In this document: positions 2,084-9,741 of the stretch, one piece after another | Layout: every line of letters starts with the position of its first letter | Numbering within the stretch: position 1 is the stretch's first letter | Origin: a virus | DNA: 12,469 nucleotides | Reading direction: 5' to 3' (one strand) | UHGV virus genome: UHGV-0112027 | Translations under genes and position numbers: made by a program | Notes under the pieces: model-generated | Databases searched by the model: none | What the model was told of the DNA's origin: nothing | Seen by the model: only the letters and a program-made list of their open reading frames with translations

Positions 2084-2280
2084 TGGGCGGCCTCCTGGAT
2101 TAACTTTTCGAGAATGGCATCAAGGGCTTTCCGTTTTCCGATATACCCGCCACCAACCCACTCTCCACGAAGCAAGGCGTAATATTTCCCGTCGTCTTCG
2201 TGATACGGTCCTCGGATAGACCAGTCGGTTGTGATGGCGTCGATAGCCTTTTTAGTTTCTGCGAAATCCATCATGCTCAT
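2080..2280 (-). CDS. Hypothetical small protein (66 aa from ATG 2280)
   Basis: Track ORF 2080..2337; ATG at 2280 lies immediately after the ren stop with GGAGG 8 nt upstream; product MSMMDFAETKKAIDAITTDW... Confidence 0.5.
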   Translation of the reverse strand: MSMMDFAETKKAIDAITTDWSIRGPYHEDDGKYYALLRGEWVGGGYIGKRKALDAILEKLIQEAAQ

Positions 2281-2570
2281 ACCCCTACCCTCCCCCAAAC
2301 CATCAACACCCGCTTCATCGCGGCACTCTGGCGACACTCCTTAAAAATCAGGTTCGTGCTCATCTTTCCTTCCCGTTCTTCCCTGGTAGCAAACCGGTAA
2401 TACACCGTTCGCCAGACCTTACCTTCGATAACCAGAAGACCTGCCCGTGCCATTTTAGCCGCGGCCTGATTTATGCTGGTTACTGTTGCGCCTGTTAGCG
2501 CGGCAACGTCCGGCGCACAGAAGCTATTATGCGTCCCCAGGTAATGAATAATTGCCTCTTTGCCCGTCAT
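2277..2570 (-). CDS. ren: Ren (lambda Rex-exclusion-resistance protein)
   Basis: 97-aa product MTGKEAIIHYLGTHNSFCAPDVAALTGATVTSINQAAAKMARAGLL... matches my recollection of lambda Ren nearly residue for residue; ATGA overlap with the P stop, as in lambda. Confidence 0.85.
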   Translation of the reverse strand: MTGKEAIIHYLGTHNSFCAPDVAALTGATVTSINQAAAKMARAGLLVIEGKVWRTVYYRFATREEREGKMSTNLIFKECRQSAAMKRVLMVWGRVGV

Positions 2571-3268
2571 ACACTTGCTCCTTTCAGTCCGAACTTAGCT
2601 TTAATTTCTGCGATCTTCGCCAGAGCCTGTGCACGATTTAGAGGTCTACCGCCCATAACAGGAAGTTGTTTTACTGGTTCAGGTATCGTCTCACCACGGT
2701 TAATTCGCGCTGTCATACAGGTCAGTTCATCGGCAGCCTTGCGCCGTAATTCCGCATCAGTAAGCGCATTGGCCCGCATGTTCTGATACAGGTTGGTAAC
2801 CAGCCAGTAGTGCGCGTTTGATTTCCACGGATAAGACTCCGCATCCGGATACAGGCCTCGCTTCCGGCAATACTCGTAAACCATATCAACCAGCTCGCTG
2901 ACGTTTGGCAGTCCGGCGATAACGGATGCTTCTTCCCGGCACCATGCAACAAACTGCCCGGGTGATGGCAGAAATGGTCGATTCTGCCGACGGGCTACGC
3001 GCATTCCTGCGTTAACCTGTTCCATTGTGGTGATCCCGTTTTCCCGGAAAGCCAGAACCCACTGGCGGCGGATTTCGTTCAGTTCGTTCTGGTCACGGTT
3101 AGCCAGGCTCGCCGGGAAAGTTGCCAGTAACTGGCTGAACACACCGTTGATGATCTGCGCTACCTGCTGTACCTGCGGCTTTTCGTCGTACTGTTCCGGC
3201 ATGTTGTTGGCGATCCGGCGCATCTGCTCACGGTCAAAGTTAACCATCTGTGCGGCGATGTTTTTCAT
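2567..3268 (-). CDS. P: Replication protein P (DnaB helicase loader)
   Basis: 233-aa product MKNIAAQMVNFDREQMRRIANNMPEQYDEKPQVQQVAQIINGVFSQLL...AKFGLKGASV matches recalled lambda P almost exactly. Confidence 0.95.
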   Translation of the reverse strand: MKNIAAQMVNFDREQMRRIANNMPEQYDEKPQVQQVAQIINGVFSQLLATFPASLANRDQNELNEIRRQWVLAFRENGITTMEQVNAGMRVARRQNRPFLPSPGQFVAWCREEASVIAGLPNVSELVDMVYEYCRKRGLYPDAESYPWKSNAHYWLVTNLYQNMRANALTDAELRRKAADELTCMTARINRGETIPEPVKQLPVMGGRPLNRAQALAKIAEIKAKFGLKGASV

Positions 3269-4194
3269 AAATCCACCCCGTAAATCCAGTCAGTGTTTGT
3301 CAGGTCGAGTTTTGATTTTCCGGCTGTCACGCCAGCCTGTTGCTTGTTACGGTTGATTTCGAGTTGGGTCCACTTGTCGCGGAGTTTGGCCGGACTTAGC
3401 ACGTTACCGGACCAGAAGTTGTCCTGGCATGCCCAGCGGAACAGCACGCACATGTCGCGGTGGTTACGTCCGTCACGTTCACGCATCAGGCGGATATCGT
3501 TAGCCCACCCTGCAAAATTCGGTTTTCTGGCTGATGGCGCGATGGTCTTCACCATGTCAAACATCCACTCTGCGGCGGTCAGGTCTTCTGCTGTCCCCCA
3601 CCTGCTGCCGCTCTGAATTGCAGCATCTGGTTTCTCCACAGGAAGATCGTTTTCTGGTTGGTCAGAGGATTCGCCAGAATTCTCGGACGAATAAGGTTTT
3701 ATATTGTCTTTTGTTAGTTTGTCTTTTGTGTTTACCTGATTCGGGTAAGTGCCTTTACCTGATTTGGGTAAACTTTTCTTACCTGATTCAGGTAAATTTA
3801 CCTCTTTCAGGTAAACTTTATTTTTCTTACCTGATTCGGGTAATGTTGACCATTCACTGACCACATTATTAATGCCGATATTCCGCCCGCTCTGAATAAA
3901 AATCCCACGCTTTACCAGAACACTTTTTGCAGCAGAACACTTGTGCGGCAATATCCCGGTCAACTCGGAAAGTTGCTCGTTGCTCACCCAATCCAGTTTT
4001 TTATTAAAGCCATATGTTTTGCGCATGACAGCCAGGAAGACCAGAAGCTGGTGCTGTGTTAATCCGGCCAGCATCACAGCTTCCAGCAACTCATTTGCAA
4101 TGCGCGTATAACCATCATCGAGATCTGCCACGCGCGGCTCCTTTTGTGCCGCATCCGGCACTGGAAAATTGAATATCTCAGCAGTGTTTGCCAT
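3265..4194 (-). CDS. O: Replication initiator O-like protein (divergent N-terminal iteron-binding domain, lambda-type C-terminal P-interaction domain)
   Basis: ATG at 4194 with GGGAGG RBS 4 nt upstream (track ORF extends to an unlikely start at 4284). N-terminus MANTAEIFNF...VADLDDGYTRIANELLEA parallels lambda O (MTNTAKILNF...VADLDDGYARLSNMLLEA); C-terminus ...DLTNTDWIYGVDL is lambda-O-like; iterons lie inside the gene. Confidence 0.85.
   Translation of the reverse strand: MANTAEIFNFPVPDAAQKEPRVADLDDGYTRIANELLEAVMLAGLTQHQLLVFLAVMRKTYGFNKKLDWVSNEQLSELTGILPHKCSAAKSVLVKRGIFIQSGRNIGINNVVSEWSTLPESGKKNKVYLKEVNLPESGKKSLPKSGKGTYPNQVNTKDKLTKDNIKPYSSENSGESSDQPENDLPVEKPDAAIQSGSRWGTAEDLTAAEWMFDMVKTIAPSARKPNFAGWANDIRLMRERDGRNHRDMCVLFRWACQDNFWSGNVLSPAKLRDKWTQLEINRNKQQAGVTAGKSKLDLTNTDWIYGVDL
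3732..3843. repeat. Origin of replication iterons: five 17-bp palindromic repeats TTACCTGATTCGGGTAA (variants) inside the O gene, adjacent to an AT-rich tract (about 3700-3731)
   Basis: Copies at 3732-3748, 3755-3771, 3779-3795, 3798-3814 and 3827-3843; each is TTACC-N7-GGTAA; spacing 19-29 bp. Architecture matches ori-lambda (iterons then AT-rich region in the O reading direction), but the iteron sequence differs from what I recall for lambda. Confidence 0.85.
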
Positions 4195-4280
4195 AATTCC
4201 TCCCGCAATGAGTGTGTTACGATTTGCACCTGAAAGTCGGTTCTGTTCGCGCAGACCGGCTTTCGCCATTTCCGAACCTG

Positions 4281-7818: not shown

Positions 7819-8115
7819 ATGAACGCTTATTACATTCAGGATCGTCTTGAGGCTCAGAGCTGGGCGCGTCACTACCAGCAGATCGCCCGTGAAGAGAAAG
7901 AGGCAGAACTGGCAGACGACATGGAAAAAGGCCTGCCCCAGCACCTGTTTGAATCGCTATGCATCGATCATTTGCAACGCCACGGGGCCAGCAAAAAAGC
8001 CATTACCCGTGCGTTTGATGACGATGTTGAGTTTCAGGAGCGCATGGCAGAACACATCCGGTACATGGTTGAAACCATTGCTCACCACCAGGTTGATATT
8101 GATTCAGAGGTATAA
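7819..8115 (+). CDS. gam: Gam (RecBCD inhibitor), 98-aa short form
   Basis: Product [60 protein letters not shown]... matches the recalled lambda GamS almost exactly; AGGAG RBS; in-frame TAA at 7762-7764 upstream. Confidence 0.9.
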
Positions 8116-8120
8116 AACGG

Positions 8121-8906
8121 ATGAGTACAGCACTCGCAACGCTGGCTGGGAAGCTGGCTGAACGTGTCGGCATGGATTCTGTCGACCCACAGGAACTGAT
8201 CACCACTCTTCGCCAGACGGCATTTAAAGGTGATGCCAGCGATGCGCAGTTCATCGCATTGTTGATCGTCGCCAACCAGTACGGCCTTAATCCGTGGACG
8301 AAAGAAATTTACGCCTTCCCTGATAAGCAGAACGGCATCGTTCCGGTGGTGGGCGTTGATGGCTGGTCCCGCATCATCAATGAAAACCAGCAGTTTGATG
8401 GCATGGACTTTGAGCAGGACAATGAATCCTGTACATGCCGGATTTACCGCAAGGACCGTAATCATCCGATCTGCGTTACCGAGTGGATGGATGAATGCCG
8501 CCGCGAACCATTCAAAACCCGCGAAGGCAGAGAAATCACGGGGCCGTGGCAGTCGCATCCCAAACGGATGTTACGGCATAAAGCCATGATTCAGTGTGCC
8601 CGTCTGGCCTTCGGATTTGCTGGTATCTATGACAAGGATGAAGCCGAGCGCATTGTCGAAAATACCGCATACACTGCAGAACGTCAGCCGGAACGCGACA
8701 TCACTCCGGTTAACGATGAAACCATGCAGGAGATTAACACTCTGCTGATCGCCCTGGATAAAACATGGGATGACGACTTATTGCCGCTCTGTTCCCAGAT
8801 ATTTCGCCGCGACATTCGCGCATCGTCAGAACTGACACAGGCCGAAGCAGTGAAAGCTCTTGGATTCCTGAAACAGAAAGCCACTGAGCAGAAGGTGGCA
8901 GCATGA
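8121..8906 (+). CDS. bet: Bet (Red-beta single-strand annealing protein)
   Basis: 261-aa product [59 protein letters not shown]... matches recalled lambda Bet. Confidence 0.95.
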
Positions 8907-9583
8907 CACCGGACATTATCCTGCAGCGTACCGGGATCGACGTGAGAGCTGTCGAACAGGGGGATGATGCATGGCACAAATTACGGCTCGGCGTCATCAC
9001 CGCTTCAGAAGTTCACAACGTGATAGCAAAGCCCCGCTCAGGAAAGAAGTGGCCTGACATGAAAATGTCCTACTTCCACACCCTGCTGGCTGAGGTTTGC
9101 ACCGGTGTGGCTCCGGAAGTTAATGCTAAGGCGCTGGCCTGGGGAAAACAGTACGAGAACGACGCCAGAACCCTGTTTGAATTCACTTCCGGCGTGAATG
9201 TTACTGAATCCCCGATCATCTATCGCGACGAAAGTATGCGCACCGCCTGCTCTCCCGATGGTTTATGCAGTGACGGCAACGGCCTTGAACTGAAATGCCC
9301 GTTTACCTCCCGGGATTTCATGAAGTTCCGGCTCGGTGGTTTCGAGGCCATAAAATCGGCTTACATGGCCCAGGTGCAGTACAGCATGTGGGTGACGCGA
9401 AAAGATGCCTGGTACTTTGCCAACTATGACCCGCGCATGAAGCGTGAAGGCCTGCATTATGTCGTGATTGAGCAGGATGAAAAGTACATGGCGAGTTTTG
9501 ACGAGATGGTGCCGGAGTTCATCGAAAAAATGGACGAGGCACTGGCTGAAATTGGTTTTGTATTTGGGGAGCAATGGCGATGA
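8903..9583 (+). CDS. exo: Exo (lambda exonuclease, Red-alpha)
   Basis: 226-aa product [40 protein letters not shown]...GFVFGEQWR matches recalled lambda Exo; ATGA overlap with bet. Confidence 0.95.
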
Positions 9584-9741
9584 AGCATCCTCACGATAAT
9601 ATCCGGGTAGGCGCGATCACTTTCGTCTACTCCGTTACAAAGCGAGGCTGGGTATTTCCCGGCCTTTCTGTTATCCGAAATCCCCTGAAAGCACAGCGGC
9701 TGGCTGAGGAGATAAATAATAAACGGGGGCTGTATGACTGA
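9580..9741 (+). CDS. orf60a-like small protein of the lambda exo-xis region
   Basis: 53-aa [56 protein letters not shown], hand-translated (below the track size cut-off); ATGA overlap with the exo stop; N-terminal sequence as I recall for lambda orf60a. Confidence 0.55.

Follow-up and report, generated by a model that had tools for sequence, protein, structure and literature searches.

The mosaic evolution of lambdoid phages is the subject of the modular theory of Botstein and of the comparisons of HK97 with HK022 by Juhala and Hendrix. The DNA considered here is a stretch of 12,469 nucleotides (nt) of the virus genome UHGV-0112027, referred to in its entirety as the window. It very probably represents the early region (regulation, replication, recombination, and integration) of an E. 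coli lambdoid prophage, composed of at least ten blocks drawn from a shared lambdoid gene pool, and its closest sequenced relatives are phages of the 4A7/PhiR30_1 type and not phage lambda itself. Lambdoid mosaicism is already textbook knowledge, and the present case is one more instance that introduces no new principle. The sharp junctions at gene or domain boundaries, the co-transfer of cI, cro, and operators and of O with its origin, and the accessory genes in fixed slots are those of lambdoid modular evolution, from which the window differs in nothing of kind. Every module occurs at 97% identity or more in public genomes, the exact combination alone excepted.

Block structure of the window relative to lambda and other phages

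Phage lambda (NC_001416) and the window share the same gene order, namely int/xis, the exo-xis region, exo-bet-gam-kil, the immunity region, and O-P-ren. According to the map of open reading frames (ORFs) and family searches, the plus strand of the window corresponds to the lambda minus strand, an orientation opposite to that of the conventional lambda map, and its modules follow one another as int/AlpA, exo-xis genes, exo-bet-gam-kil, cI with divergent cro, the cII-like gene, and O-P-ren, collinear with lambda. Two traits of the lambdoid group are present, as the early modules stand in lambda-like order and three blocks, about 4.0 kb in total, provide segments of 96-98% identity that would allow recombination.

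When the window was aligned to lambda by blastn (word size 7, E ≤ 1e-3), exactly three substantial alignments were obtained, collinear and reverse-oriented (Table 1). Identity to lambda is bimodal, at 96-98% in these blocks and with no detectable nucleotide similarity elsewhere except for a 23-nt match within O. The uniformly low or uniformly high identity that the first-pass annotation had named as evidence against its proposal, a mosaic of lambda-like blocks and non-lambda modules between 2277 and 9741, was thus not seen, and the proposal was borne out. In that interval, 3428 of 7465 nt (46%) are lambda-type, while the remainder is without similarity detectable by blastn, and 32% of the whole window aligns to lambda. 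The genes listed there as lambda-type proved to be so by tblastn, with protein identities of 96.8% for Ren, 97.9% for P, 98.0% for Gam (98-amino-acid form), 99.6% for Bet, 98.7% for Exo, and 98.1% for Orf60a; O reaches 66% overall. The third block, 10288-10877 (orf61 and orf73), was missed; it lies just beyond the right edge of the interval. Equally, the immunity region, the cargo, the gene upstream of gam, the methyltransferase (MTase), and the integration module had been called non-lambda, and tblastn against lambda returned no match for the repressor (cI), cro, the cII-like gene, the cargo, kil, the MTase, DUF4222, the AlpA-like (xis-like) gene, or the integrase.

In the three blocks, the alleles are those of lambda (ren, P, the C-terminal half of O, gam, bet, exo, orf60a, orf61, and orf73, at 96-98% on the DNA level), whereas the other blocks are functional analogues or accessory cassettes. 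Immunity in the window consists of YdaS, YdaT, and an S24 repressor with operators of their own, and N, cIII, ral, and sieB are lacking. The N-terminal domain of O and the iterons differ from those of lambda, a DUF6414 cassette stands where lambda has rexAB, kil is KilR-like, a Dam-family MTase occupies the place of orf63, and the integrase, of the sbcB type, runs in the opposite orientation and is paired with an AlpA-like gene. The species criterion of the International Committee on Taxonomy of Viruses (ICTV) is about 95% or more nucleotide identity over essentially the whole genome. With 32% of the window aligned and with immunity, origin, and integration modules unrelated to those of lambda, the element falls outside the species Lambdavirus lambda. 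In practical terms, the map separates the parts that can be annotated by transfer from lambda, the nine genes or gene parts listed above, from the rest.

Junctions with lambda were mapped on ungapped side-by-side alignments, and at each of them about 10 nt suffice for identity to drop from about 97% to random. Three further junctions came from a tile matrix with five close relatives. Of the nine, eight lie within about eight codons of a gene end, and reading frames and translational coupling are kept, with ATGA overlaps at 2277-2280 and 10288-10291. The junctions announced at about 7745 and 9734 were measured at 7737 and 9736. The left edge, placed earlier at 2277, had to be moved, since lambda homology ends at 2304, eight codons inside the 3′ end of ren. 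The claim that junctions coincide with gene boundaries holds for the eight but not for the junction inside O, which coincides with the first iteron and thus with a domain boundary. This position within O, at the origin iterons, is itself a classical lambdoid junction. Together with the start-to-stop replacement of orf63 by the MTase and the variable cargo slot, it offers examples of module exchange that are exact to the nucleotide.

The blocks are also distributed independently of one another. Some part of the window is matched by 369 phage records, and per-block megablast searches against 50,697 phage records gave each block a carrier set of its own. The immunity/origin block (3732-5881) was found in 16 records at 95-99%, including 4A7, Lambda_4C10, 1W/3W, and the PhiR series (PhiR30_1), and only at about 72-78% in Salmonella P22-like and Klebsiella phages. 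The terminator-oL-pL-kil block (7063-7736) occurs in 21 records, the MTase block (9737-10287) in one (PhiR30_1, 100%), and the cargo cassette (5882-7062) in none of the 50,697. The integration module (11234-12469) is carried at 95% or more (top matches about 99%) by 28 records that are otherwise different, among them the Stx2 phages WGPS8, WGPS6, and 1717 as well as mEp234 and Sf101. The genes after ren (1-2303) were matched only by fragments, each covering 11% or less; among the genomes compared, SF-468 alone carries this block, at 98-100% identity. The DUF4222 block is common to PhiR30_1, 4A7, SF-468, EC21Z-137, and CUWW06 at 99-100%. In a tile matrix of the window against six references, no single reference carries all blocks: E. 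coli SF-468 matches 1-5881 and 7063-11233 at 98-100%, E. coli EC21Z-137 matches 2304-11233, cargo included, in a single 8.9-kb alignment of 98.8%, and E. coli CUWW06 matches 7063-9736 and 10288-12469.

Overall, phages of the 4A7/PhiR30_1 type cover 57-62% of the window at 97.5-97.9%. With 4A7 and Lambda_4C10 (genus Bievrevirus) and PhiR30_1, the window shares ren, P, O, the iterons, the cII-like gene, cro, and cI at 97-98%, and the terminator, oL, pL, kil, the Red genes, and the exo-xis region at 96-100%; the MTase of PhiR30_1 is identical to that of the window. In 4A7 and PhiR30_1, however, the cargo after cI and the genes after ren are not those of the window, the integration module of 4A7 adjoins an icd fragment, and the integrase of PhiR30_1 is same-strand. 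For a genus, the ICTV criterion is about 70% or more nucleotide similarity genome-wide; 4A7, classified in the genus Bievrevirus, covers 57% of the window at 97.5%, a value that concerns the early region only.

Table 1. Blocks, features, and junctions of the window (positions are those of the window; lambda coordinates refer to NC_001416).
Feature	Position	Strand	Remarks
Block A, non-lambda accessory genes downstream of ren	1-2303	-	slot between ren and nin genes
Five ORFs of block A	394-615, 640-1446, 1443-1712, 1853-2083, 2080-2280	-	1443-1712 Ead/Ea22-like
Block B, lambda-type (ren, P, O C-terminal half)	2304-3731	-	lambda 40546-39119, 96.2%, no gaps
ren	2277-2570	-	
P	2567-3268	-	
O, C-terminal half	3265 to about 3731	-	
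O, N-terminal domain	about 3732 to 4284	-	
Replication-origin iterons inside O	3727-3843		
Block C, non-lambda replication-specificity and immunity module	3732-5881		
YdaT-family CII-like gene	4281-4826	-	Pfam YdaT_toxin
YdaS/Cro-like gene	4851-5084	-	Pfam YdaS_toxin
Proposed oR operators	about 5089-5146		shared half-site
S24-peptidase CI-like repressor	5153 or 5189 to 5881	+	Pfam Peptidase_S24 with HTH_3
Block D, cargo cassette at rexAB position	5882-7062	+	
59-amino-acid ORF	6031-6210	+	overlaps DUF6414 gene by 38 nt
DUF6414 protein gene	6173-7030	+	Pfam PF19952; longest ORF starts at 6116
Block E, non-lambda (terminator, oL, pL-like promoter, kil)	7063-7736	+	
Bidirectional terminator	7063-7080		GC-rich hairpin
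Proposed oL operators	7144-7251		shared half-site
pL-like promoter	7231-7259		TTGATA-17-TATTAT
KilR-like kil	7537-7743	+	PHROGs phrog_294
Block F, lambda-type Red recombination module (gam, bet, exo, orf60a)	7737-9736	+	lambda 33193-31194, 98.0%
gam, 98-amino-acid form	7819-8115	+	
bet	8121-8906	+	
exo	8903-9583	+	
orf60a	9574-9741	+	
Block G, non-lambda Dam-family MTase	9737-10287	+	
Predicted orphan phage Dam-family N6-adenine MTase	9734-10291	+	NPPY motif
Block H, lambda-type exo-xis region (orf61, orf73)	10288-10877	+	lambda 31008-30418, 97.1%
orf61-like gene	10368-10583	+	position from relatives' annotation
TraR/DksA-like orf73 homologue	10682-10900	+	Pfam zf-dskA_traR
Block I, non-lambda DUF4222 gene	10878-11233	+	
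DUF4222 gene	10948-11226	+	Pfam DUF4222
Block J, non-lambda integration module	11234-12469		
AlpA-like excisionase/regulator	11287-11478	+	Pfam Phage_AlpA, weak match
Tyrosine integrase, sbcB-site type	11459 to beyond 12469	-	Pfam Phage_integrase; cut by window end
Junction with lambda, J1	2304		8 codons before ren stop; next gene starts in ATGA overlap with ren stop
Junction with lambda, J2	3731		codon 185 of 339-codon O gene, exactly at start of origin iterons
Junction with lambda, J3	7737		2 codons before stop common to window kil and lambda kil
Junction with lambda, J4	9736		G of ATG starting MTase here, orf63 in lambda
Junction with lambda, J5	10288		ATGA holding stop codon of MTase and orf63
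Junction with lambda, J6	10877		about 8 codons before stop of TraR-like gene (orf73)
Junction with relatives	5881/5882		repressor (cI) stop codon
Junction with relatives	7062/7063		first base of bidirectional GC-rich terminator hairpin
Junction with relatives	11233		7 nt after DUF4222 stop

Origin of the patchwork

A patchwork of this kind could arise during assembly, through the merging of reads from different lambdoid prophages of one host into a chimeric contig. E. coli often carries several such prophages whose Red and replication genes are almost the same (one genome may match in as many as 11 places), and the window as a whole was not found at a single site in any complete genome of the collection, where coverage peaks at 81%. 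Each junction, however, is crossed by one or more independent complete E. coli assemblies (2304 and 3731 in SF-468; 5881, 7063, 9736, and 10288 in EC21Z-137; 11233 in CUWW06), and frames and ATGA coupling are kept at the junctions, unlike at random mis-joins. It follows that the patchwork is not a product of assembly, an explanation to which we assign very little probability. Still less can be said for vertical divergence, in which the non-lambda parts would be the same genes evolving much faster and no module would have been exchanged. The N-terminal domain of O does look like a diverged homologue at 45% identity, and the repressors of both phages are helix-turn-helix (HTH) proteins with an S24 peptidase. 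Divergence of this sort does not agree with the loss of about 97% identity, down to random, over about 10 nt, with a cargo GC content of 38.9% against 52-53% in the lambda-type blocks, or with an integration module that is 99% identical to otherwise unrelated Stx2 and Sf101 phages. The replaced genes also differ in length and belong to different Pfam families: YdaS/YdaT versus Cro/CII (YdaT with 181 amino acids, CII with 97), the Dam MTase of 185 amino acids versus DUF1382 orf63 of 63, and DUF6414 versus the unrelated RexAB.

Exchange could be accepted and the element nonetheless be read as essentially lambda with foreign insertions, instead of an independent draw from the lambdoid pool. About 4.0 kb in lambda gene order at 96-98% identity would fit this description. 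Yet the non-lambda parts substitute lambda segments and are not additions to them, the aligned fraction is the 32% given above, and the immunity, origin, and integration specificities are all different, with N, cIII, ral, and sieB gone. Since the best overall relatives are phages of the 4A7/PhiR30_1 type, of which 4A7 belongs to another genus, the element is not a lambda derivative, a reading that we consider highly improbable, but another combination from the same pool. The modular reading of the first-pass annotation is therefore supported by the collapse of identity within about 10 nt, the non-homology of the replaced genes, and the block-specific carriers.

Several points weigh against this reading in its simplest form. 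The junction within O means that the gene boundary is no strict rule. In the ren-P-O block, mismatches to lambda number 54 and are clustered (variance/mean 3.5 in 50-nt bins, a value reached in 0 of 5000 random placements). Identity to lambda drops to 82% in a short patch inside P (2657-2744), which borders on 254 nt without any difference; in the Red block, 38 mismatches are evenly spread (variance/mean 1.0). This clustering points to small secondary exchanges inside the lambda-type ren-P-O block, so that the blocks are mosaic on a finer scale and a map of ten blocks simplifies the picture. No exchange event was observed as such, nor do these data assign a direction or a donor. Finally, the window does not include the structural genes, and the 4A7-like assignment is based solely on the early region.

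What is directly observed is the map of blocks, the place of each junction, and the separate distribution of every block, whereas the recombination mechanism and the direction of exchange are inferred. Segments would pass between lambdoid phages and prophages that share a host. In most cases homologous or homeologous recombination, driven by Red/RecT-type or host RecA pathways, would act on the conserved flanks. Diverged sequences can also be exchanged, a process promoted by Red and Rad52-like recombinases (Martinsohn et al., 2008, PMC2327257; De Paepe et al., 2014, PMC3945230). Rare illegitimate joins would also occur, and selection would filter the products so that surviving junctions lie at gene or domain boundaries. 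Matched parts would travel together, that is, the O N-terminal domain with the iterons, the repressor and Cro with the oR/oL operators, and the integrase with its excisionase-like partner; co-transfer of cI/cro and of other interacting genes has been described in lambdoid phages (Kupczok et al., 2022, PMC9836094). Accessory cassettes of one or two genes, such as the MTase, the DUF6414 pair, and the genes after ren, would be swapped at fixed slots. The exchange of orf63 for the MTase, which begins at the start codon, ends at the stop codon, and has lambda-type sequence of 97-98% identity on both sides, is the outcome that flank-mediated cassette exchange predicts.

The DUF6414 cassette in the rexAB slot

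Among known systems, the cargo comes closest to the Dodola defence system, in which DolA carries DUF6414 and is partnered by DolB, a ClpB-like ATPase (bioRxiv 10.1101/2024.10.26.620412; PMC11514479). Similar to DolA, the cargo protein of the window matches DUF6414 above the gathering score (PF19952, E 2.4e-10, 41.1 bits versus a cut-off of 25), and its cassette occupies a prophage slot where relatives carry genes for exclusion or defence. The window differs in having no ClpB-like partner; instead, a conserved ORF of 59 amino acids overlaps the start of the gene. Between the cI stop codon and the terminator, the cassette holds only these two genes. No ClpB-like neighbour was seen in the Klebsiella and Chromobacterium relatives either.

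Like rexAB in lambda, the cassette is part of the immunity region, with the repressor gene on one side and the putative oL on the other. The repressor stop codon and a shared terminator delimit the slot. Its content changes from one element to the next. Lambda has RexAB there, PhiR30_1 two hypothetical genes, 4A7 a hypothetical gene and an ASCH-domain gene, CUWW06 a HipA-family kinase and DUF3037, and SF-468 a Panacea-domain gene and a hypothetical gene, while the window and EC21Z-137 share the small ORF and the DUF6414 protein. In E. coli EC21Z-137 the cassette is 100% identical and RefSeq annotates both genes. The pair of small ORF and DUF6414 gene also stands directly after the repressor gene in Klebsiella Rac-like prophages and occurs in Chromobacterium. 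Part of the conservation of the small ORF may come from its 38-nt overlap with the DUF6414 gene.

Searches with the cargo proteins gave little. NCBIfam gave nothing for the pair, the DUF6414 protein had no PADLOC match even at E ≤ 10, and in PADLOC searches with the cargo and the other unknown ORFs the MTase (orphan MTase) was the sole match. The best Protein Data Bank (PDB) match of a DUF6414 profile search, the kinase TTK, had an E of 0.1 and was judged a chance match. An AlphaFold2 model of the protein (predicted local distance difference test score, pLDDT, 75; predicted template modelling score, pTM, 0.69) found no fold relative in PDB with Foldseek, the best match reaching E 0.41 and a template modelling (TM) score of 0.23.

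An exclusion or defence role of the cassette is plausible from its position and family. A more specific version, in which the cassette would be a stand-alone superinfection-exclusion or anti-phage system of the prophage, related to DolA, working without DolB and co-transcribed with the repressor in the lysogen, is put forward tentatively and is rather doubtful. The first-pass annotation had marked the non-lambda segments as the places to look for novelty, which was reasonable. Among them, the DUF6414 cassette in its exclusion-gene slot alone is poorly understood and is the sole lead of wider interest; the other modules are of common annotated types.

Replication, immunity, recombination, and integration modules

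In the replication of lambdoid phages, O binds the iterons through its N-terminal domain and P through its C-terminal one. The O protein of the window is a chimera, with 155 aligned C-terminal residues 92% identical to lambda O and an N-terminal part at 45%, and it matches Pfam Phage_rep_O at residues 51-145. A repeat search found five copies of the palindromic TTACCTGATTCGGGTAA within O at a spacing of 19-29 nt, which differ from the four iterons of the TCCCTCAAAACGAGGGA type in lambda (annotated at 39034-39118). Lambda homology stops exactly at the first copy, and the iterons change together with the N-terminal domain. Given the binding roles of the two domains, the chimera would keep both pairs intact, the O N-terminus with its iterons and the O C-terminus with the lambda-type P. 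With Phage_rep_O, iterons inside O, and a lambda-like C-terminus next to P, O and its origin are predicted to be a replication module of the lambda type. As a separate observation, the one further blastn match to lambda, a 23-nt exact island (4109-4131, lambda 38771-38749) in the coding region of the O N-terminal domain, lies around the conserved VADLDDGY motif in otherwise unalignable sequence and is a possible microhomology site for recombination.

Downstream of ren, the accessory genes (1-2303) had no blastn match to lambda. The ORF at 1443-1712 matches Pfam Ead_Ea22, the PHROGs matches of this block are to families of unknown function, and NCBIfam gave nothing for its ORFs. The Ead/Ea22-like gene (window 1443-1856) stands in nin-region position, although its family is normally found in the exo-xis/b region, and in E. 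coli SF-468, where the sequence is identical, RefSeq lists it as a pseudogene that contains an internal stop.

In the immunity module, the CII-like protein matches the solved YdaT structure (PDB 8bt1, E 2.5e-4), and phrog_163 of PHROGs, annotated as CII-like, matches the block. The half-site ATAGCAATA, with at most one mismatch, has 13 matches versus 2.7 expected, a number reached in 0 of 200 shuffles. The matches form two clusters, one separating cro from the repressor gene (5089-5146) and one overlapping the pL-like promoter (7144-7251), which are putative oR and oL/pL. No homologue of N or cIII lies between pL and kil in the window or in the annotations of relatives, and cro and the cII-like gene are separated by 24 nt (4826-4851) with no terminator called between them. 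Thus, early transcription is probably N-independent. An Rfam scan of the whole window (E ≤ 1) returned no RNA family and hence no known nut- or put-like antitermination RNA. A put-like structure replacing N in the pL leader (7266-7540) was considered and dropped, its folding z-score of -0.05 being no better than that of shuffles. The gene upstream of gam had also been considered as an ORF of 96 amino acids (7453-7743); the Kil-family match and a Shine-Dalgarno sequence favour the shorter form of 68 amino acids in Table 1. It matches PHROGs phrog_294 (Kil) with E 1.3e-37 and the NCBIfam "FtsZ inhibitor protein" with 63 bits, under the cut-off of that model.

At the left end of the Red block, lambda homology begins at lambda 33193, downstream of the annotated start of the 138-amino-acid Gam (33232), and there is an extra base at window 7802. 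Of the Gam frames, that of 98 amino acids alone is conserved here.

The MTase matches Pfam Dam (E 2.3e-56) and TIGR01712 (165.6 bits versus a cut-off of 97), contains the NPPY catalytic motif in its translation (WLNPPYSN), and has no adjoining restriction-enzyme gene in the ORF map of the window. By profile and motif, it is a predicted orphan Dam-family N6-adenine MTase (TIGR01712/PF05869).

In the integration module, the AlpA-like gene and the integrase converge with a 20-nt overlap, unlike the same-strand xis-int of lambda, and the integrase frame remains open to the window end. The module is 99% identical to that of the Stx2 phages WGPS8 and 1717, mEp234, and Sf101, and its convergent layout is common to Stx2 phages, mEp234, and Sf101. 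In E. coli CUWW06 the same module adjoins sbcB, which lies directly beyond the integrase, and ARAGORN found no tRNA or tmRNA, and thus no tRNA attachment site, in the window. That the minus-strand integrase might belong to a separate neighbouring island was ruled out, as the AlpA/int pair forms the terminal integration module of 27 complete phage records; its position next to sbcB in CUWW06 also contradicts this.

A minor observation concerns the exo-xis region. Between window 10288-10583 and lambda 31008-30715, an indel of 1 nt at lambda 30868 shifts the frame, and relatives annotate a protein of 71 amino acids (10368-10583, phrog_303) where lambda has the 61-amino-acid orf61 in another frame. 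The lambda reference annotation at orf61 may therefore not reflect the conserved product.

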